DNA of 64,000 bases from Candidatus Omnitrophota bacterium (GCA_041653115.1 JBAZGA010000003.1:1832-65831), one strand, 5' to 3'; positions 32,912-41,778 are shown, numbered from the stretch's first letter. The notes: a model not told the origin generated them from the sequence alone. Numbers and translations are program-made.

Positions 32912-34968
32912 TTATTAAATTTATATATCCTTATCGTATCGTTTGAAAATACCAGCTCAAAAAGACCGGGGCGAGCCCTGGCCCAGGGATCTTCAAGGGG
33001 AAATTCTATTCCACTGCCGAGTAAATCGGAATAGACAAAAAAATAATCGATATTTCTCTTTCTCAGATTTTCAACCCAGACGTTATAATCGGCGCGGCCA
33101 CGATAATTATTTTCATCTTCAAAATTCCTGAATATTATATCGCCATCATAGCCCCAAACATATTTGGAATTCGGGAAATAATGCAACATCGCCGGCTCAA
33201 CCCTATTCACTGAAACATAATAAACATTATTCTTGAAATTTGTCCCGTAGAGAGGTAAAAGAACGGGCCTTCCTATATAAGCGATATTGTTACCGCGGGT
33301 ATTCTGGTTGAGCCAAAGCCAGGCCTTAGTTGCATCTGGCCAGAAACCGGAATAATTTACCATTTTGACATAACGGATATATTCATTTTTGATATAATCT
33401 TTTTCTAAAAAGCTTGATATTAAAATAATCGCGATGAAAAAAACAATTACCAGTTTAGTTAAATCTATGCTTTTTATAAATCTTACAATATAAGGTGACA
33501 AGAAAAATAAAAGGAGGGAAAGGACAAACGAAATAATTAATTCTAAATGCCCGGCTAATTCTATACTAGAAGCGAATATACATATTAATATCAAAATTTT
33601 TAAAAGTAATTTTGGTATCTTTAGCATATCTGCTACATAAAAAGCAATTATAGAGGCTATTGCAAATAAACCATAGATATAACGTAAGTTAGCTATCGGA
33701 ATTATAAATCGAAAAATCAGGATTAAAAAAAATGGCAAAATCAGAAAATAAATAAGATAAAAATTCAAATCTTTCCTTCTTTTTATTATAGTAACGGGTA
33801 AAGCTAATAATATGGCTGGCAGTAAAAATATTACCGTTTGAGCCCCGAGGCCTTCTGAAAATAATATCCTGGCCAAACTGAAGTCTCCGGGGCGTATGGA
33901 TGTTCTGTAGATCTCATTTTCTACTACACCTTTAAAGATAACAGTGTTAAATAATCTAAAATTTAGTGGATATAAGGGATTACCAGTCTGAATAACATTT
34001 CTTATATAACCGAATCCTCCAAAAATTATTATCAGCAGAATAGCAAGCGCTAAGACAGCCGGAGATTTTTTAAAAGGGTACCTAAAAAAATAAAACCATG
34101 CTAAAGGAATAAGTAATATAAGGGCTATCGGCATAGCGGTGATTTTGGTTCCCAGTAACAATCCTAATGCGATACTATAAAGTATAGTATTTTGGATAAT
34201 CCTTTCCCGCTTATATATTAGAAAAAGGTAATTTAATACTATCAGAAATAATGTCGAGACCATGATATCTATATAGGCAATTTCTAACTGCTTAAAATAA
34301 TTTGGAATTAAATTAAATATGATTACGGAAAATAAAGCGTATTCTTTGGACAAATTTAATTTTCTTGCTAAAGAATATAGAGCGAAAAAGGAGATAACAA
34401 AGAAAGGAACCTGGCCCAAGTCTGCGATAAAAACATTTTTAAGCGGAAATATAAACCATAAAAAAAACAGGCTTGCATTTACAGGGTAATACGAAACCGC
34501 GGGATCTCCGGATATACTGATAGGGTTATCAAGGTTGCCGTGCTTTAGCCACTCTACAGGAAAAGTAAAATGGTAATTTAAACAATCCCAACCAAAAGGA
34601 GGGTTAACCAGGTTAATAGAAATCTTAACTAAACCGAATCCCAGGATTAAACAAACGCCCATTAATATAACTTTATTACTAAAGAACCCGGATAATACAT
34701 CCTTTGCTCTATTAAAACTAAAATAGGAATTTTTATTTCTTGCTACAAACCAGATAATCAGAAGAATAAACAGATTAAATAAAATAACATTATTTAAATA
34801 AAGTATGCCAAATATTCCTAAAAGGAGTTGGGTAAATACAATTTGGCTGAAATAAAGAATAAATAACGATAACAATGCATCAATAAATTTAGAGGGTTTT
34901 AATATTCTATAAGTCAATAGGAATGCTGAAGACCCGGCTATAAGATTCATTAAAAGAAGAATGATCAT
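32908..34968 (-). CDS. Large polytopic membrane protein, a possible GT-C (ArnT/PMT-like) glycosyltransferase
   Basis: 686 aa. At least 12 hydrophobic helices followed by a roughly 170-aa soluble C-terminal domain. AGGAG RBS. Confidence 0.4.
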   Translation of the reverse strand: MIILLLMNLIAGSSAFLLTYRILKPSKFIDALLSLFILYFSQIVFTQLLLGIFGILYLNNVILFNLFILLIIWFVARNKNSYFSFNRAKDVLSGFFSNKVILMGVCLILGFGLVKISINLVNPPFGWDCLNYHFTFPVEWLKHGNLDNPISISGDPAVSYYPVNASLFFLWFIFPLKNVFIADLGQVPFFVISFFALYSLARKLNLSKEYALFSVIIFNLIPNYFKQLEIAYIDIMVSTLFLIVLNYLFLIYKRERIIQNTILYSIALGLLLGTKITAMPIALILLIPLAWFYFFRYPFKKSPAVLALAILLIIIFGGFGYIRNVIQTGNPLYPLNFRLFNTVIFKGVVENEIYRTSIRPGDFSLARILFSEGLGAQTVIFLLPAILLALPVTIIKRRKDLNFYLIYFLILPFFLILIFRFIIPIANLRYIYGLFAIASIIAFYVADMLKIPKLLLKILILICIFASSIELAGHLELIISFVLSLLLFFLSPYIVRFIKSIDLTKLVIVFFIAIILISSFLEKDYIKNEYIRYVKMVNYSGFWPDATKAWLWLNQNTRGNNIAYIGRPVLLPLYGTNFKNNVYYVSVNRVEPAMLHYFPNSKYVWGYDGDIIFRNFEDENNYRGRADYNVWVENLRKRNIDYFFVYSDLLGSGIEFPLEDPWARARPGLFELVFSNDTIRIYKFNK

Positions 34969-34986
34969 TTCACTCCTGTAAGTCTT

Positions 34987-35145
34987 TTAAAATAAGGTAT
35001 AAATAAAAGGCGCTACTGCCGAAGACTGGGTAAAGAAAATCAAAAAACCCAGTAAAAGAAGCACGATGATGATCGGCGCCAGCCACCATTTTTTACGCGC
35101 GCATAAAAAGTCCCAGAATTCCTTTAAAATCGCTAATTTGCCCAT
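34987..35145 (-). CDS. Unannotated 52-aa membrane protein (DUF5989-like 'RKKWWLxPII' family)
   Basis: Own translation: MGKLAILKEFWDFLCARKKWWLAPIIIVLLLLGFLIFFTQSSAVAPFIYTLF. A GAGG RBS lies about 5 nt upstream. It is below the 60-aa cutoff of the ORF track. Confidence 0.55.
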   Translation of the reverse strand: MGKLAILKEFWDFLCARKKWWLAPIIIVLLLLGFLIFFTQSSAVAPFIYTLF

Positions 35146-35161
35146 TGCATCCTCTCTTGAG

Positions 35162-35563
35162 CTAAAATAACCTTTCGTAATCCAGGCGGTTAAAGTCCTT
35201 TGCCTCTTTTTTCTTCCAATAGGAATCTTTACCCTTTTCTATTTTTCTATCCAGCAAGTCCATTCTAAATAATTTAATCATTAGCCCGATGGGAATAAAA
35301 ATCAAATAAAAGATAATAACTAAAATCAGGCGCGTATTAAGCCATCCTAAGATGAATGCCAACTTCATCCAGGCTATATATATAGGCTTTAATAAACCCG
35401 GCATAGCAACCGCTGATATAAAAAAAATTAATGAGGTTATATAAACGGATACAGGGTTGTGCTGATCCCTAAAAAGAATAATCAGGGCAATTACAAGAAA
35501 CGCTATCCCCATGATTATCCCGAACTTCCTCAACGTTTCTTTATTTAAGTTGATTTTTTCCAT
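35162..35563 (-). CDS. Small two-TM membrane protein (SxtJ-like?)
   Basis: 133 aa. Two hydrophobic helices. Immediately downstream of the carbamoyltransferase. Confidence 0.4.
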   Translation of the reverse strand: MEKINLNKETLRKFGIIMGIAFLVIALIILFRDQHNPVSVYITSLIFFISAVAMPGLLKPIYIAWMKLAFILGWLNTRLILVIIFYLIFIPIGLMIKLFRMDLLDRKIEKGKDSYWKKKEAKDFNRLDYERLF

Positions 35564-35605
35564 ACCTGCCTAAATACTATATGCTGTCTACTTTCTATAT
35601 TATTC

Positions 35606-37426
35606 CTAATCCAGCTCAAATACTTCCTGCCATCCAATATCTCCCTGTACCGGTTTTTGCTCCCCCTTACCCAGCAAAAAAGGACCCATTACCAGATAAT
35701 CCATTTCTGTACGCATAAAACATTTAAATGCGTCTTCGGGCGTACAGACCAGGGGTTCACCCCTGACATTAAACGAAGTATTAATTATCGCCGGGCAGCC
35801 GGTTTTCCTATAGAAGGCATTAATCATATCATAATACAGAGGATGGTCTTCTCTCTGAATTGTCTGTACACGCGCTGAATAATCTACATGAGTGACTGCC
35901 GGAATCCTTGAGCGCGTTACTTTTAATTTTTCAAATCCCTTCGCATCTTCAGGGCTGTTTAACTTTATTTGTTTATCTGTTCTTACGGGCGCCACTAAAA
36001 GCATATACGGGCTTTCCCTGTCTAAGGCAAACCAATCAGAGACATAATCTTTTAAAACGGTCGGCGCAAAAGGCCGGAATGACTCGCGGTATTTAATCTT
36101 TAAATTCATCCTTGACTGCATTTGGGGGCTGCGCGCATCGCCAATAATGCTTCTTGCGCCTAATGCTCGCGGACCAAATTCTAAAGCCCCCTGGAACCAA
36201 CCGATTATTTTACCTTCTATAATCAAATCCGCTACTCTCTGCGGTATATCCGAATACGAGATTTTCTGATAAGACAGGCCCTCCTTCTTCAGGAAATCCT
36301 CTATATAGCAATCGCTATAAGAAGGCCCTAATAACGACGCCTTCTGCTTGTCTTTCTTGCCGTCTACAGCGCGTTTATTCCCTAAATACTTGTACCAAAC
36401 CAGAAGCGCCGCCCCTAATGCCCCTCCGGCATCGCCGCTCGCCGGCTGAATCCAGATTTCCTGAAAAGGGCCTTCGCGTAAAATCCTGCCATTACCCACA
36501 CAGTTCAAGGCAACGCCCCCGGCAAGGCAGAGCTTATCCTGGCCGGTAACTTTATATACATAGTGCGCCATGCGCAGCATAATCTCTTCGGTTACCTTCT
36601 GAATCGAAGCGGCAATATCCATGTCTTTTTGGGTTATGCGTGTTTCCGGCCTTCTCGCAGGGCCGCCGAATAACCGCTCAAATCTAGAGTTAGTCATCCG
36701 TAAGCCGTTGCAATAACCAAAATATTTCATATCTAATTTGAAAGAACCATCTTCCTTTAAATCAATCAGGTTATCCATTATTAAATCTGTGTATTTAGGC
36801 TCTCCGTAAGGTGCCAGCCCCATCAGCTTATATTCGCCGGAATTTACCTTAAATCCCGCATAATAAGTAAACGTCGAATATAACAAACCTAATGAATGCG
36901 GGAACCTTAAATTTTCTAAAATTTCGATATTATTATTCCTGCCTATCCCGAAACTGGCGGTATCCCACTCCCCTACGCCGTCCACGGTTAAAAAAGCTGC
37001 CTGATTAAACGGCGAAGGATAAAATGCGCTTGCCGCGTGCGATGCGTGGTGTTCCGTAAAAAGGATTTTCCCTTTGTAATTTAATTCCTTGCGTATCAGC
37101 TCGGGGATCCAGAGCTTTTGCTTCAACCATAAAGGCATCGCCTGGATAAACTGCCTGATGCCGGAAGGCGCATAGGTAAGCGCTGTCTCAAGTATCCTTT
37201 CGAATTTAATAAAGGGCTTGTCGTAAAAAACTATAAAATTTAAATCGGAGGTATCGATCTCTCCTTCCTTAAGGCACCACTTTATTGAATTTATCGGAAA
37301 ATTAAAATCGTGTTTCTTGCGCGTAAAACGCTCTTCCTGCGCTGCGGCAATTATTTCTCCTTCACGGACAAGGCAGGCGGCACTATCGTGGTAATATGCG
37401 GAAATCCCTAAAATATTCATAAACAA
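35606..37426 (-). CDS. Carbamoyltransferase (NodU/CmcH/NovN family)
   Basis: 606 aa. N-terminus ILGISAYYHDSAACLV (Kae1/HypF-like domain) plus a C-terminal YrdC-like domain. Confidence 0.85.
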   Translation of the reverse strand: MFMNILGISAYYHDSAACLVREGEIIAAAQEERFTRKKHDFNFPINSIKWCLKEGEIDTSDLNFIVFYDKPFIKFERILETALTYAPSGIRQFIQAMPLWLKQKLWIPELIRKELNYKGKILFTEHHASHAASAFYPSPFNQAAFLTVDGVGEWDTASFGIGRNNNIEILENLRFPHSLGLLYSTFTYYAGFKVNSGEYKLMGLAPYGEPKYTDLIMDNLIDLKEDGSFKLDMKYFGYCNGLRMTNSRFERLFGGPARRPETRITQKDMDIAASIQKVTEEIMLRMAHYVYKVTGQDKLCLAGGVALNCVGNGRILREGPFQEIWIQPASGDAGGALGAALLVWYKYLGNKRAVDGKKDKQKASLLGPSYSDCYIEDFLKKEGLSYQKISYSDIPQRVADLIIEGKIIGWFQGALEFGPRALGARSIIGDARSPQMQSRMNLKIKYRESFRPFAPTVLKDYVSDWFALDRESPYMLLVAPVRTDKQIKLNSPEDAKGFEKLKVTRSRIPAVTHVDYSARVQTIQREDHPLYYDMINAFYRKTGCPAIINTSFNVRGEPLVCTPEDAFKCFMRTEMDYLVMGPFLLGKGEQKPVQGDIGWQEVFELD

Positions 37427-37665
37427 AAGTAAAAAAGCAATAAAATAATCAAACTAACCAGTGTTACGCTATTGGCTACGATTATTATCGGGTCCCTTAA
37501 ATAGACGCCGTAAGAAACCCATAAAGAAACGCCCAGGGAGAGCTGTAAGAGCGTAATCAGGCTGACGTCCTTTACCGACTTAGTCTTCCATGCCTTGATA
37601 ATCTGGGGGATGAAAGCAAACATCGTCAAGAGCGCGGCGGTTGAGCCGACTACTGGCCAAAGCAT
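37417..37665 (-). CDS. SemiSWEET / PQ-loop family small transporter
   Basis: 82 aa. Three TM helices with a PQ motif (FIPQIIKAWKTKS). Confidence 0.58.
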   Translation of the reverse strand: MLWPVVGSTAALLTMFAFIPQIIKAWKTKSVKDVSLITLLQLSLGVSLWVSYGVYLRDPIIIVANSVTLVSLIILLLFYFCL

Positions 37666-37726: not shown

Positions 37727-38986
37727 TCATGCCTCCTGCTTTACGCGGCATTCTTTATACGCCAGGCCCAGGTGAATGGAAAAAAGTAAAATTGCATTGA
37801 CGCAAAGCACCAGTTGTACCTGCGCGAGGCTTTGATGAAGCAGGCTGATCGTCAGGAACTGCAGGAATGTAAAACCGACCAAATACTTGACGAAACGCAA
37901 ATCCTTGATCGAGAGCAAATAAAAGATTAAGATATATAAAACGGAAAAAAAACTCATCGAAATACTGAAGAGCCTGCCTAAGGATATTGATTCCGGATAA
38001 GCCTTGCCTGTCAGAAGCTTCAGGATGAAAGCGGGAAAAAGATTATAGATTAATGCGGCGCAAATACATAAGCCAAAAACATAGAAGAGCGACTTTTTTA
38101 AAGTTGAAAACGTGCCCAGATTCTGCGCCTTTAAGCCGCTGGTCCTGGGAAAAAGCACGATGCTTATTGCTGCCGGCAAAAAAAGAAAAATTTTTCCTAC
38201 CATATGGGCTAAAGAATAAAGGCCGGAATCGAAGCCCGTAAAAAAATATTTTACTACTACCATGTCCAGGTTTACCAGGGCGATGAAACAGAAGTTGCTG
38301 ATTGCCACGGGGAATAAATAACTAAGCATCTCTTTATATTCAATATCCTGCCTCGCGCTTTTTAAGGAAATAAAATGCCTGACGGGGGCATAATAAATCA
38401 CCAGGCCGATTAAGATGGAAGCCAGTAACGCGCCCAGGGCGCTGGCAATATTAAATCCGAAGAGAATCAATAAAAAAGCGAGAGCTAATTTTAAGCCGCC
38501 GGTGATGACTGATGCGGCAGTCAGCCACCTAAAGAGCTCTAAGCCCTGGACAGCGCCTGAAAAAACCGGGCTTATCCAGGCCGAAGCAATCAGGAGAGGA
38601 AAAATATATCGGCCATATACCGTGGGGATCCTCAGCGTATTTATTATGTATGGCGAGGCAAGCCAAAAAATAAAAAAGGTAAAAAGTGCCAAGAGAGAAG
38701 TTTTTTTGAGGAGGTCCGATAATAAAAACCTGATTTTATTAACCTGGTTACGCGCATTAAATTCCGCACTATATTTAGCTACTGCCGTACCGATAGTGCT
38801 TAAAGGAACGGAGATTACCATAAATATGGAAAGCAGGGAATTGAACGCCGCGAAATCGGGGGTGGAAAGCTTATGCGCAATCAATAGCTGGTAAAGCAGG
38901 TTAAATAAATGGACTAAGGCAATCCCCGCAAAGACAATAACTATATTTTTGCTAAAGGAATCTAATTTCCTTATTTGTCTAAGCAT
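37727..38986 (-). CDS. Polysaccharide flippase (Wzx/MOP superfamily)
   Basis: 419 aa. About 12 TM helices. Follows tyrS with an 8-nt overlap. Confidence 0.62.
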   Translation of the reverse strand: MLRQIRKLDSFSKNIVIVFAGIALVHLFNLLYQLLIAHKLSTPDFAAFNSLLSIFMVISVPLSTIGTAVAKYSAEFNARNQVNKIRFLLSDLLKKTSLLALFTFFIFWLASPYIINTLRIPTVYGRYIFPLLIASAWISPVFSGAVQGLELFRWLTAASVITGGLKLALAFLLILFGFNIASALGALLASILIGLVIYYAPVRHFISLKSARQDIEYKEMLSYLFPVAISNFCFIALVNLDMVVVKYFFTGFDSGLYSLAHMVGKIFLFLPAAISIVLFPRTSGLKAQNLGTFSTLKKSLFYVFGLCICAALIYNLFPAFILKLLTGKAYPESISLGRLFSISMSFFSVLYILIFYLLSIKDLRFVKYLVGFTFLQFLTISLLHQSLAQVQLVLCVNAILLFSIHLGLAYKECRVKQEA

Positions 38987-40160
38987 CTACGATTATTCTT
39001 AAGAACCTCTTCGGGCCCAACTTGATTGTGCCGCTTTGCTTAAGGATAAAATTCTCGTCTTCAATCTTTTGGTTCTCGAACAATACAGCGCCCTGCTTAA
39101 TCAATCTGCGCGCTTCGTTCCCGCTTTTGGCTAATCCGCTCTTCAATAATACAGCCAAAATCGCTTCCCTGCCGTCGCTTTTATATTCGGCGATATCTTT
39201 CGGCAGCTCCTTTTGGCTGAATACCCGTTCAAATTCCTGGCGGCTATCTAAGGCGGTTTCCCGGGAATGGTACTGCCCGACGATATTCTGGGCAAGTTTC
39301 AATTTTGCCTCCTTGGGGTGCAGCTTCTTTATCGTATTTAAATCCTCCTCCGTCAATAACTCATAATATTTGAGCATCAGCTTATCGGATATGGACATCA
39401 ACTTCCCGAACATCTCGTTTGGCGGCTCATTAATACCGATATAGTTTCCGTAAGACTTGCTCATTTTCTGTACGCCGTCGGTTCCCTCCAAAAGCGGCAT
39501 GGTAATTACTACCTGCTGCGCCTGGCCGAAATCCTTCTGGATATCCCTTCCCACCAAAAGGTTAAATACCTGGTCTGTCCCGCCTAATTCAATGTCCGCT
39601 TCTAATTTAACGGAATCATACCCCTGTAAGAGCGGGTACATAAACTCTAAAAGCGAGATATCCTCGTTCCTGGCTAATCTTTTTTTAAAATCCGCGCGCG
39701 CCAATAGCTGGGAAATGGTCGCGTGCGTGGTTAATTTCAGTATCTCCAATACCGACATTTTCTCAAACCATTGGCTGTTAAAGACAATTTTAATCTTATC
39801 GACATCGAGTATTTTAGACACCTGTTTTTTATAAGTTGCGGCGTTATCTAACGCTTCTTCCCTGCTTAACTGTTTTCTTATCTCGGAGCGGCCGCTGGGA
39901 TCTCCGATGCGGGCGGTAAAGTCGCCGATTAAAAAGAAGACCTGATGGCCCAACTCCTGGAATTGGCGTAATTTTCTTAAGAGAACCGCGTGCCCCAAAT
40001 GGATATCGGGCGCGGTCGGGTCAAAGCCTGCCTTTATCACCAGCGGCCTTTTTTGCCTGACACTCTCTTCTATTTTTTTCTTTAACTCTTCTTCGGAAAT
40101 TATTTCCACAGTGCCGCGCTTAATAATGTTCCATTGCTGAGCGATATCTGATTTCTCCAT
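38979..40160 (-). CDS. tyrS: Tyrosine--tRNA ligase
   Basis: 393 aa. HIGH-type motif PDIHLGHAV, KMSKS, and a C-terminal S4-like domain. Confidence 0.9.
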   Translation of the reverse strand: MEKSDIAQQWNIIKRGTVEIISEEELKKKIEESVRQKRPLVIKAGFDPTAPDIHLGHAVLLRKLRQFQELGHQVFFLIGDFTARIGDPSGRSEIRKQLSREEALDNAATYKKQVSKILDVDKIKIVFNSQWFEKMSVLEILKLTTHATISQLLARADFKKRLARNEDISLLEFMYPLLQGYDSVKLEADIELGGTDQVFNLLVGRDIQKDFGQAQQVVITMPLLEGTDGVQKMSKSYGNYIGINEPPNEMFGKLMSISDKLMLKYYELLTEEDLNTIKKLHPKEAKLKLAQNIVGQYHSRETALDSRQEFERVFSQKELPKDIAEYKSDGREAILAVLLKSGLAKSGNEARRLIKQGAVLFENQKIEDENFILKQSGTIKLGPKRFLRIIVDA

Positions 40161-40202
40161 CGTCCTACCTCTTGTTAGGAGACACTTTTCCTATTGAATT
40201 TA

Positions 40203-40234
40203 AAAACGTTTTCCGCTTGAATTAAAAACGTTTT
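40203..40234. promoter_or_regulatory. Two copies of a 10-nt perfect palindrome, AAAACGTTTT, 22 nt apart
   Basis: Read directly at 40203-40212 and 40225-40234, in the rpsA-tyrS spacer. The second copy abuts the rpsA stop. Confidence 0.25.
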
Positions 40235-40236
40235 AC

Positions 40237-41778
40237 TTAAATTTTGGCGGTGAGGCCGATTTTGCCCTGCTCAATGTCAACCTTAATTACTTTGACCATC
40301 AGCTTATCTCCGGGCTTTAACTGAGAAACTTTCTCCTTATCTATTTCACTGGTATAGACCAGGCCCTCCAGATCCTCTTCTAACTTAACAAATACTCCGA
40401 AATCGGTAATACTGACTACCTCTGCTTCCAATGCCGTATCTAAAGGGTATTTTGCGGCAATCTCCGGCCAGGGACTCGGCTGCAGTTGTTTCAGTCCCAA
40501 AGTAATGCGCCGGTTTTGCGCATCTACGGAAAGCACGAGCACTTCGATTTTCTGCCCTTTTTTCAAGACATCCTGCGGATGGGCTATCCTTTTGGTCCAG
40601 GACATATCCGAGACGTGAATCATCCCTTCTAAATTACCGTCTAACTCCACAAATACCCCGTAGTCGGTAAAACCCCTTACCTTTCCGGAAACCTTTGTTC
40701 CCCCCGGGTATCTGGCTTCTGCTTCCAGCCAGGGGTTCTGCTCCAGCTGCTTCAAGCTCAAAGATATCCTGCGGCTGTCTTTATCCACGCTTAAAATCTG
40801 CGCCTCTACCATATCTCCGATGGCGAATATTTCAGTGGGATTATTTACGCGTTTTGTCCAGGATATCTCGGAGATGTGGATTAGGCCTTCAATGCCCTTT
40901 TCCAGCTCTATAAATGCTCCGTAAGGGAGGATATTGACGACTTTGCCTTTTACCTTGGAGCCGACGCTATATTTTGTCTCAATATCCTGCCAGGGATCGG
41001 GAAGCCTTTGCTTCAGACCCAAAGAAACCTTCCCCGAATCTTTATCCATGTTAAGGACCATCACCTCAATCTTATCCCCCAAAGCCACGGCTTCGGAAGG
41101 ATGGCTGATCTTGGACCAGGACATATCCGTAATATGTAAAAGCCCGTCCACTCCGCCCAAGTCAATAAACGCGCCGAAGTCGGTAATTGCCTTGACTGTC
41201 CCGGTATACACCCCTCCGATTTTTAAGTTCTGCCAGATTTTCTCCTTGGCCTCTTCTTTCTGTTTCTGGATGGCTTCGCGGCGGGACAAGATAATACTCC
41301 GCCTGAGATTATTGACCTTGACAATTTTAAACTTAAAAGTCTTGTTTAATACTTCTTTATCCGGCACGCCCTTAAAGGCGGAAAGCGAAGCCGGCAGGAA
41401 CCCTTCGATCCCGGAACAATCCACGAGAAAACCGCCTTTTACTTTTTTCATCGGCCTCCCGTCTATCAACCCGCCTTCCTGCGAATATTTAACAATGGTG
41501 TCCCATCCGCTGATGCGCAATGCCTTCTCCCGGGAAAGAGCAATTGAGCCGGAATCATCCTCTATTGAGTCAACGAAAAAATCCAGCTCATTGCCTACTT
41601 TTAAATCCTCCGGGCTGAACTCGGAAATCGGTATCATCCCTTCGGATTTAAAGCCCACGTCCACAATCACTTCCTTGGACTTGACCAGGACAATCTTGCC
41701 TTTAATAACCTGGCCCTCCTTGATTATTTTGATGCTCTCGTTGTAAAGCTGTTCCATCTCCGTTCTGTCTTTGTTCAT
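40237..41778 (-). CDS. rpsA: 30S ribosomal protein S1
   Basis: 513 aa. Several tandem S1 (OB-fold) repeats. An AAAGGAGAAAAG RBS. Confidence 0.82.
   Translation of the reverse strand: MNKDRTEMEQLYNESIKIIKEGQVIKGKIVLVKSKEVIVDVGFKSEGMIPISEFSPEDLKVGNELDFFVDSIEDDSGSIALSREKALRISGWDTIVKYSQEGGLIDGRPMKKVKGGFLVDCSGIEGFLPASLSAFKGVPDKEVLNKTFKFKIVKVNNLRRSIILSRREAIQKQKEEAKEKIWQNLKIGGVYTGTVKAITDFGAFIDLGGVDGLLHITDMSWSKISHPSEAVALGDKIEVMVLNMDKDSGKVSLGLKQRLPDPWQDIETKYSVGSKVKGKVVNILPYGAFIELEKGIEGLIHISEISWTKRVNNPTEIFAIGDMVEAQILSVDKDSRRISLSLKQLEQNPWLEAEARYPGGTKVSGKVRGFTDYGVFVELDGNLEGMIHVSDMSWTKRIAHPQDVLKKGQKIEVLVLSVDAQNRRITLGLKQLQPSPWPEIAAKYPLDTALEAEVVSITDFGVFVKLEEDLEGLVYTSEIDKEKVSQLKPGDKLMVKVIKVDIEQGKIGLTAKI

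Follow-up and report, generated by a model that had tools for sequence, protein, structure and literature searches.

Within a 64,000-nucleotide stretch of DNA from a Candidatus Omnitrophota bacterium (GCA_041653115.1, JBAZGA010000003.1:1832-65831), referred to here as the window, positions 34987 to 37665 hold a predicted O-carbamoyltransferase (CT) with small membrane proteins encoded on either side of it. Our analysis favors reading the CT and the two genes that follow it, which encode proteins of the SxtJ and DUF5989 families, as an O-carbamoyltransferase cassette of the SxtI/J/K type. This cassette would be one variable module of an Omnitrophota surface-glycan locus (lipopolysaccharide- or O-antigen-like), in which the small proteins act as membrane subunits and the acceptor is lipid-linked; taken as a whole, we consider this reading probable, with real room for doubt. 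Because the surroundings are surface-glycan genes, O-carbamoylation of a glycan is most likely the function, and as the most reasonable reading it is well supported by the context.

The families themselves, their adjacency to carbamoyltransferases and the SemiSWEET context of the locus have already been named or published, and the window adds no new type of system. What it shows is that surface-glycan loci of an uncultured phylum carry the cassette as a mobile module. The comparison yields three testable clues: the fusion of a GT2 to SxtJ (GT2::SxtJ), an SGNH protein resembling SxtL that turns up repeatedly beside the cassette, and sequence motifs found only in one CT subfamily. SxtJ and DUF5989/SxtK are very widespread and are linked to that one CT subfamily across many phyla; they were named eighteen years ago.

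A carbamoyltransferase of the SxtI-like subfamily

Four open reading frames (ORFs) make up the stretch of interest, all on the minus strand, and an ORF listing upheld the coordinates given for them in the first-pass annotation. They form a tight operon, with one ATGA overlap and gaps of 16-42 nt. A promoter and terminator scan of 32.5-40.4 kb gave counts equal to the shuffled expectation and was thus uninformative, and Rfam and tRNA scans of the window returned no matches. Family calls were judged against curated Pfam and NCBIfam cut-offs, which all four proteins pass; the families first guessed for the three small proteins (SxtJ, DUF5989 and PQ-loop) are among the calls that stand.

The CT gene (35606..37420) had initially been read as encoding 606 aa from a TTG at 37426. 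The most likely start is instead the ATG at 37420, giving a protein of 604 aa identical to NCBI entry MFA5410479.1, which is named 'carbamoyltransferase'. A single chain carries both Carbam_trans_N (5e-101; 339 bits, cut-off 24) and Carbam_trans_C (1e-71; 240 bits, cut-off 27), and it aligns over its full length with solved enzymes (NovN, 9s2t, at 5e-88; GdmN and TobZ to 4e-78). Aligned with NovN, it retains the HxxxH, DGxGE, GDAG, GPRALGxRS and NTSFN motifs; in 80 homologues, conservation reaches 95% or more at H124-H128, D147 and D330 and in GPRALGARS (416-424) and NTSFN. GPRALGRS has been put forward in the literature as the putative catalytic site of SxtI. Against the NodU equivalog model NF041651 the protein reached only 128.6 bits (cut-off 1000), with a match confined to residues 266-559, and is thus not a NodU equivalog. 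In the TobZ family, the reaction begins in the C-terminal YrdC-like domain with the formation of carbamoyl-AMP out of carbamoyl phosphate and ATP, after which the N-terminal Kae1-like metal site passes the carbamoyl group to the acceptor hydroxyl. On sequence grounds, the window protein is an O-carbamoyltransferase of the TobZ/NodU/CmcH family and of an SxtI-like subfamily within it. This subfamily has two elements of its own, a Trp-rich MPLWLKxKLW at residues 94-105 and a C-terminal FELD at 601-604. Both are absent from NovN and from a CT paralogue (in locus L025) whose gene has no adjoining SxtJ/K.

Two small membrane proteins downstream of the carbamoyltransferase

Following the CT gene after 42 nt is a gene for a 133-aa protein (35162..35563) that matches SxtJ (PF19588) with 34.3 bits against a cut-off of 24.4; the identical protein is named 'SxtJ family membrane protein' at NCBI. 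It had been described as having two transmembrane (TM) segments, but hydropathy together with an AlphaFold model gives three or four hydrophobic helices. Four hydrophobic stretches are present (13-31, 38-56, 58-75 and 79-99), of which the AlphaFold (AF2) model (pLDDT 81) merges the last two into one long helix (helices at 8-33, 38-53 and 55-98). The termini that flank these stretches are rich in Lys and Arg, with 4 and 11 such residues, and the basic C-terminal tail is conserved, so that a four-helix topology with both ends inside is probably the best fit. Residues W74, N76, D102, L104, W116, Y129, E130 and F133 are invariant in the alignment. The SxtJ family amounts to 12,232 representatives when clustered at 50% identity; among the best 150 of these no fusion occurs, lengths are nearly always about 112-155 aa, and four members are truncated and shorter.

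A further 16 nt downstream lies the 52-aa ORF (34987..35145), which, as first proposed, fills the 193-nt gap (34969-35161) that separates the 133-aa ORF from the 686-aa ORF, with 16 nt to spare on its upstream side and 18 nt on its downstream side. The proposed GAGG ribosome-binding site is likewise present at 35154-35151, 5 nt before the ATG; on the minus strand the preceding sequence reads ...CAAGAGAGGATGCA-ATG. The protein belongs to DUF5989 (PF19451; 87.6 bits, cut-off 27, E 5.4e-25) and consists of a basic amphipathic N-terminal segment, one hydrophobic or TM segment at 21-40 and a conserved C-terminus, APFIYTLF. Its homologues fall into at least 3020 clusters at 90% identity, the 120 best being 77-92% identical over the full length. 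Across 48 homologues from related loci, pN/pS is 0.25 in this frame (with pS at 0.83, near saturation) and 1.03 and 3.18 in the other two. The 52-aa frame is under purifying selection; frame conservation and a profile match had been named at the outset as what would tell for or against the gene, and both came out in its favor. That the ORF is spurious is ruled out by the Pfam match at 5e-25, the pN/pS of 0.25 and the thousands of homologues.

The first-pass annotation had called this ORF unannotated. This holds insofar as it fell under the 60-aa cut-off used there, but NCBI does name members of the family, as 'DUF5989 family protein'. The exact 52-aa sequence is missing from the protein cluster table and was found on a Logan contig. 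In other genomes gene callers can pass over DUF5989, as in L161 (GCA_001805465.1; 10417-10575), L164 (6422-6577) and L167 (5491-5667), whose DNA contains the ORF in an equally wide gap. Because the ORF exists in these three loci with no gene on record, the DUF5989 gene is systematically under-annotated. Our literature search on DUF5989 found no paper.

Conservation of the trio across phyla

Synteny was assessed in 80 loci, one genome per species, whose CT is 64-81% identical to that of the window; they come from Omnitrophota, anammox Planctomycetota, KSB1, Bacteroidota, Ignavibacteria, Calditrichia, delta-proteobacteria and others. Companions were detected by profile searches of six-frame translations. 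A tblastn search of plasmids with the window SxtJ found only the Planktothrix copy, and because it missed the annotated copy of Paludisphaera and that of Sinorhizobium meliloti, absence by tblastn is unreliable for so small a protein and hidden Markov models are needed.

SxtJ stands beside the CT in 79 of the 80 loci, the single exception being a contig end. DUF5989 is found in 57 loci, and 9 others have no room for it, hence 57 of the 71 in which it could have been seen. The reverse check, starting from SxtJ homologues, finds CT and DUF5989 adjoining wherever the contig is long enough. The usual order is CT-SxtJ-DUF5989, with SxtJ-DUF5989-CT in some anammox loci and in Sinorhizobium. These counts bear out the first suggestion that SxtJ- and DUF5989-type proteins are usual companions of carbamoyltransferases in many bacteria. 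Only the trio is universal in the set, and its other neighbors vary. The commonest neighbor family is a glycosyltransferase family 2 (GT2) protein of the DPMS class lacking TM helices (17 of 80 loci), which is also present in the window; it is followed by AlgX-like SGNH/GDSL proteins (13), homologues of the 686-aa protein encoded downstream of the trio in the window (12), Wzy_C (10), DegT (10) and GT4 (8), and further by GT9, WecA-like GT4, ManC and ABC-2 permeases (Wzm/Wzt).

Two of these surroundings deserve mention in their own right. In L058 (3366-5698), L061 (8192-10778), L071 (8270-10827) and L074 (8219-11843), which form one Omnitrophota CT clade and have no DUF5989, an ABC-2 permease and a long ATPase (Wzm/Wzt-like) come directly after SxtJ, a possible link to ABC-transporter-dependent glycan export. 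In eight loci (L040, L041, L051, L053, L054, L057, L066 and L072), all from Ignavibacteria- or Bacteroidota-like genomes, the large subunit of carbamoyl-phosphate synthase is encoded within a few kb of the trio, for example at 2041-3519 and 3997-5862 of L041, which suggests a dedicated supply of the carbamoyl donor.

What recurs across phyla as a fourth partner is not SemiSWEET but an SGNH/GDSL protein resembling SxtL. The AlgX-like SGNH/GDSL proteins beside the trio carry an N-terminal TM anchor (L034, 6905-7987; L050, 8574-9656; L040, 8521-9717; and 10 other loci), and in L034 and L050 the gene lies between SxtJ and DUF5989. No SGNH homologue was found in the 64 kb of the window. On plasmid p1 of Planktothrix agardhii (L169; NZ_LR882945.1, 43893-46726) the row annotated in RefSeq is sterol desaturase-SxtJ-DUF5989-SGNH, the last at 7575-8825 of the locus. 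On pSymB of S. meliloti 1021 (L170, 6376-8833; NC_003078.1, ~483.9-486.4 kb) a divergent SGNH gene (4631-5959 of the locus) precedes SxtJ-DUF5989-CT. In Paludisphaera borealis PX4 (PALBO1, 46.1-48.7 kb; L171, 6992-9551) RefSeq lists in one row a carbamoyltransferase, an SxtJ family protein, a DUF5989 family protein and a sugar O-acetyltransferase, and the trio sits within an exosortase/EpsI exopolysaccharide locus. S. meliloti and P. borealis thereby offer two cultured, tractable hosts with complete modules. A literature search for the S. meliloti pSymB carbamoyltransferase matched only three papers, in one of which no carbamoyltransferase other than ornithine/aspartate carbamoyltransferase is named.

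The surface-glycan locus

The first-pass annotation placed the module between Wzx and a putative GT-C enzyme, and both flanks stand. Upstream, 61 nt from the SemiSWEET gene, lies a 419-aa Wzx-like flippase (37727..38986, minus strand) with multiple hydrophobic segments, which passes PF01943 Polysacc_synt (36.9 bits, cut-off 28.2) and matches MatE with 25.9 bits. Downstream, 18 nt beyond the DUF5989 gene, a polytopic membrane protein of 686 aa is encoded at 32908..34968 (minus strand). A local scan gave it no Pfam match above cut-off, and it has no sequence match in the PDB; the precomputed assignment is to PF26626 (DUF8201), with PMT_2 recorded for two homologues. An AF2 model built from 40 homologues (pLDDT 77.6, pTM 0.83) comprises a polytopic N-terminal module and a C-terminal extracytoplasmic domain. 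Among its significant matches in a Foldseek search of the PDB only GT-C enzymes occur: the top 14 are all GT-C, the best 11 at probability 0.99-1.0 with E from 3e-4, and the TM-scores are modest at 0.32-0.43 (STT3, ALG9, AglB, AftD, ALG12, Pmt4, PimE, AftA). In the family alignment D30, just after helix 1, and D128, E139 and D155, in a conserved loop, are invariant, candidates for the acidic residue that GT-C enzymes conserve in their first extracytoplasmic loop. Judged by its fold matches, the protein is a putative GT-C glycosyltransferase. Some loci hold two paralogues of this DUF8201 family (L161, 3435-5480 and 11587-13458; L084, 10682-12691 and 13706-15760), and in L164 other polytopic proteins (DUF2079, DUF6311) recur nearby.

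Homologues of the 686-aa protein are regularly followed by a TM-less GT2 of ~235 aa. The best NCBIfam matches of this GT2 cluster, none of which reaches its cut-off, are to PgfS, ArnC, dolichyl-phosphate hexose transferase and AglJ. The window has such a gene at 30613..31332 (minus strand). Its 239-aa product has no TM domain, falls in the class of polyprenyl-phosphate sugar synthases (DPMS/ArnC/PgfS-like), matches Glycos_transf_2 at 2e-27 and is orthologous to the GT2 trailing the 686-aa homologues, with 9e-95 to a representative of that cluster. A GT-C-like and a DPMS-like gene are both present near the trio in 13 of 39 Omnitrophota-like loci, and such neighbors are for the most part restricted to this group.

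The stop codon of the 686-aa ORF overlaps the start of an S-adenosylmethionine-dependent methyltransferase of 272 aa (32093..32911, minus strand; Methyltransf_23, 2e-14), after which come three GT2 genes. Between ~21.9 and 39 kb the window contains, besides Wzx and these three GT2, a Wzy_C protein, two GT9 heptosyltransferase-like proteins, a ManC-like nucleotidyltransferase, DegT, a radical-SAM enzyme, an epimerase and a GmhB-like HAD phosphatase. The ORFs scanned from 11.8 to 39 kb all belong to glycan, nucleotide-sugar or housekeeping functions, and none is a core sxt gene such as the sxtA-type polyketide-synthase-like gene or the sxtG amidinotransferase. Farther along, at 15920-17940, two tandem GalT/HIT-like paralogues of 331 and 341 aa (GalP_UDP_transf, DUF4921) lie between gap and fmt.

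One Omnitrophota metagenome-assembled genome (MAG) joins the two kinds of gene physically. In L079 (JAHIPS010000068.1; 7797-8885 of the locus), a locus without DUF5989, the CT gene is followed at once by one continuous ORF of 362 aa, a GT2::SxtJ fusion. Its residues 5-225 match the catalytic domain of DPMS (5mlz, 8e-26), ArnC and GtrB, its residues ~232-362 are SxtJ (1e-48), and the junction contains neither a stop nor a start codon. SxtJ thus takes the position in which DPMS-class GT2 enzymes have a TM domain.

Proposed role of the cassette and alternatives

We propose that SxtJ is an obligate membrane subunit that would hold the otherwise soluble CT at the inner face of the cytoplasmic membrane, with DUF5989, which would pair an amphipathic helix in the cytosol with a single TM helix, as a frequent second subunit. 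This tethering role is suggested because of the linkage of the genes, the topology of their products and the subfamily-specific elements of the CT; contact with the latter would probably be made through the Trp-rich 94-105 segment and the C-terminal FELD tail. The acceptor in the window is most likely a polyprenyl-phosphate-linked sugar at the cytoplasmic face, to judge from Wzx, from the GT-C enzyme and the DPMS-like GT2 encoded nearby and from the fusion in L079. One candidate is an undecaprenyl-phosphate (Und-P)-linked monosaccharide made by the neighboring TM-less DPMS-like GT2 for subsequent use by the GT-C enzyme; a second is an undecaprenyl-diphosphate-linked repeat unit before Wzx flips it. 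SemiSWEET would be a separate component of the locus, outside the cassette.

Several observations weigh against this proposal. The same trio serves a soluble alkaloid in the saxitoxin cluster, and the S. meliloti module adjoins a two-component system made up of a histidine kinase and a LuxR-type regulator, in surroundings free of glycan genes. Because the trio occurs in both of these settings, the small proteins cannot be specific for a lipid-linked glycan. In 36 of 41 loci from other phyla neither a GT-C-like nor a DPMS-like gene lies within 6 kb. DUF5989 is truly missing from 14 loci with room for it, and no substitute small TM gene was found in them. The GT2::SxtJ fusion was seen in a single MAG, and the SxtJ model had no significant structural match in the PDB. 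Finally, Planktothrix p1 is an exception to the linkage of CT and SxtJ, with no CT within 7 kb of its SxtJ-DUF5989-SGNH row, from which it follows that the small proteins may serve the SGNH partner rather than the CT.

The saxitoxin and S. meliloti settings and the 36 loci also suit another reading, in which the CT modifies a nucleotide sugar or some other small, soluble metabolite of the cytoplasm. SxtJ and DUF5989 would then present no lipid-linked substrate and would only localize or stabilize the CT or couple it to product export. The substrate of SxtI/J/K in the saxitoxin pathway is indeed a soluble alkaloid, and the characterized relatives TobZ, NovN and GdmN also act on soluble substrates. 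However, a soluble acceptor leaves unexplained why this CT subfamily alone keeps two membrane proteins, as the near-constant presence of SxtJ attests. NovN and the L025 paralogue, as CTs for soluble substrates, lack the subfamily motifs; the GT2::SxtJ fusion points to polyprenyl-phosphate chemistry; and a role in export sits poorly with two proteins that together have about five helices and resemble no transporter. We regard a soluble acceptor as rather unlikely.

Bolder than the membrane tether proposed above is the idea that SxtJ and DUF5989 are a general membrane platform for enzymes acting on polyprenyl-phosphate-linked monosaccharides, which in Omnitrophota would dock both the TM-less DPMS-like GT2 and the CT. 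An Und-P-sugar would then be made and O-carbamoylated on the cytoplasmic side, flipped, and transferred to the surface glycan by the DUF8201 GT-C enzyme. We think this scheme unlikely. If it were true, it would describe a carbamoyl modification of a lipid-linked sugar donor not previously described and give a first function to a family of more than 12,000 representative clusters.

The recurrence of the SGNH protein raises a further possibility, a trans-membrane relay with SxtJ and DUF5989 as its core within the membrane. The CT would load the carbamoyl group, and an extracytoplasmic SGNH protein (SxtL-like, AlgX/AlgJ-like) would deliver or trim it on the polymer, much as in the AlgI-AlgJ-AlgX and PatA-PatB O-acetylation systems. 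The anchored SGNH proteins described above, the two that fall between SxtJ and DUF5989, the position of sxtL after sxtK and the S. meliloti and Planktothrix rows, the latter without a CT, would all suit such a relay. On the other hand, besides its absence from the window, no SGNH homologue lies within 6 kb in 67 of the 80 loci, TobZ-type enzymes as a family pass carbamoyl from carbamoyl-AMP directly to the final acceptor, and no carrier chemistry is apparent in five small helices. A relay strikes us as improbable.

SemiSWEET as a separate component

The 82-aa protein encoded immediately upstream (37417..37665) is a PQ-loop transporter (PF04193 at 2.7e-11, 43.5 bits, cut-off 22; MtN3_slv at 1.2e-10) that passes the NCBIfam model SemiSWEET_2 (83.1 bits, cut-off 80) and is entered at NCBI as 'SemiSWEET transporter' (MFA5410480.1). 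It aligns with solved structures (4rng at 3.6e-13, 9kax and 4qnc). Its PQ motif lies in FIPQIIK, and W49 and N65 align with a Trp and an Asn of 4rng, which we take to be part of the sugar-binding pocket in the solved SemiSWEETs. Its stop codon overlaps the CT start as ATGA, and the two genes are thereby translationally coupled.

The first-pass annotation had entertained a conserved quartet that included this gene, an idea that the synteny check does not sustain. SemiSWEET accompanies the trio in 1 of the 80 CT loci (L018), and a CT lies near SemiSWEET in 6 of 79 SemiSWEET-centered metagenomic loci, four times directly after it and twice one gene on. The arrangement recurs in L018, L084, L105, L106 and L110, and with one gene in between in L128 and L147. 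SemiSWEET is co-transcribed with the CT, yet it is not a conserved member of the cassette, which these counts rule out. Its neighbors in 74 loci are RmlB-like dehydratases (45), RmlD-like proteins (16), RmlA (16) and GT2 (15), with tyrS and rpsA just upstream. Clustering of SemiSWEET with RmlA/RmlB in Omnitrophica has already been published (PMC5972207). The window has the same anchor, rpsA and tyrS followed by the glycan locus. Because the rml neighbors and the rpsA-tyrS anchor are shared, SemiSWEET is a standing element where an Omnitrophota glycan locus of variable content begins. The locus after rpsA-tyrS behaves like a variable surface-glycan hot spot, with SemiSWEET as its constant early gene.

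The remaining alternative, that SemiSWEET is a functional fourth member which flips or exports the carbamoylated sugar or its lipid-linked form, could draw on the translational coupling, on the recurrence in seven loci and on the flippase that a DPMS-like GT2 and a GT-C enzyme would need, with the eukaryotic PQ-loop protein MPDU1, required for the use of dolichyl-phosphate-linked sugars, as an analogy, but its rarity beside the CT, the published preference of its clade for rml genes and the retained Trp and Asn, which fit an ordinary small-sugar uniporter, leave it very little chance of being right.

As side observations, a glycan locus of variable gene content starts right after rpsA-tyrS in many Omnitrophota (window 38979-41778; L082-L155). 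The window also holds a second sugar-nucleotide block at 11812-14698, ~7 kb past the main glycan locus (an HTH_24 regulator, RmlA-like and RmlD-like proteins and a nucleotidyltransferase), whose genes adjoin SemiSWEET in other Omnitrophota.

Comparison with known systems

The combination of a GT2 polyprenyl-phosphate sugar synthase and a GT-C transferase in one locus is likewise found in ArnC-ArnD-ArnE/F-ArnT and GtrB-GtrA-GtrC. In the former pathway, ArnD modifies a lipid-linked monosaccharide on the cytoplasmic face before it is flipped, and this is where a CT would act if the acceptor were an Und-P-sugar. Unlike in these pathways, no ArnD, ArnE/F or GtrA homologue was identified in the window, and we know of no described carbamoyl modification of an Und-P-sugar donor. 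As for tethering, human DPM1-DPM2-DPM3, the dolichol-phosphate-mannose synthase, provides a parallel in which a TM-less catalytic subunit that works on a polyprenyl-phosphate substrate is tethered and stabilized at the cytoplasmic face by two very small membrane proteins. The comparison is an analogy only, as SxtJ and DUF5989 have no sequence kinship or demonstrated structural kinship with DPM2 and DPM3, and the chemistry differs.

Among carbamoyltransferases, the window CT shares its two-domain architecture, full-length alignment and metal- and nucleotide-binding motifs with TobZ, NovN and GdmN, soluble antibiotic-tailoring enzymes for which, to our knowledge, no SxtJ/K partners exist. In contrast to them, its subfamily has the additional MPLWLKxKLW and FELD elements. 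Closer in role are the enzymes acting on glycoconjugates. NodU is the 6-O-carbamoyltransferase of Nod factors, and WapO (PA5005) of Pseudomonas, of the same enzyme family, O-carbamoylates a heptose of the lipopolysaccharide core at the 7-O position (PMC8005017), which sets a precedent for glycan O-carbamoylation. Both carbamoylate a sugar hydroxyl of a glycoconjugate, the kind of role envisaged here, and the window for its part has two GT9 genes and a GmhB-like phosphatase. We are not aware of SxtJ/K partners for either WapO or NodU.

The closest parallel is the saxitoxin cluster, in which sxtI-sxtJ-sxtK have the same order as the trio and nearly the same lengths (1839/405/165 bp, against 1815/402/159 bp here), and the Pfam family of the trio's middle gene is named after SxtJ. 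DUF5989 would hold the position of SxtK, to judge from the size of sxtK (165 bp), its place after sxtJ and the cyanobacterial row. In the saxitoxin cluster sxtK is followed by sxtL, a GDSL lipase, and the Planktothrix SxtJ-DUF5989-SGNH row mirrors sxtJ-sxtK-sxtL. Unlike the sxt cluster, the window is a surface-glycan locus, with no other sxt gene nearby and no SxtL-like SGNH protein. In the literature, SxtJ and SxtK are of unknown function and 'hypothesised to work in conjunction' with SxtI. The function of SxtJ and SxtK, once established, would bear on the tailoring of saxitoxin as well as on the decoration of bacterial glycans.

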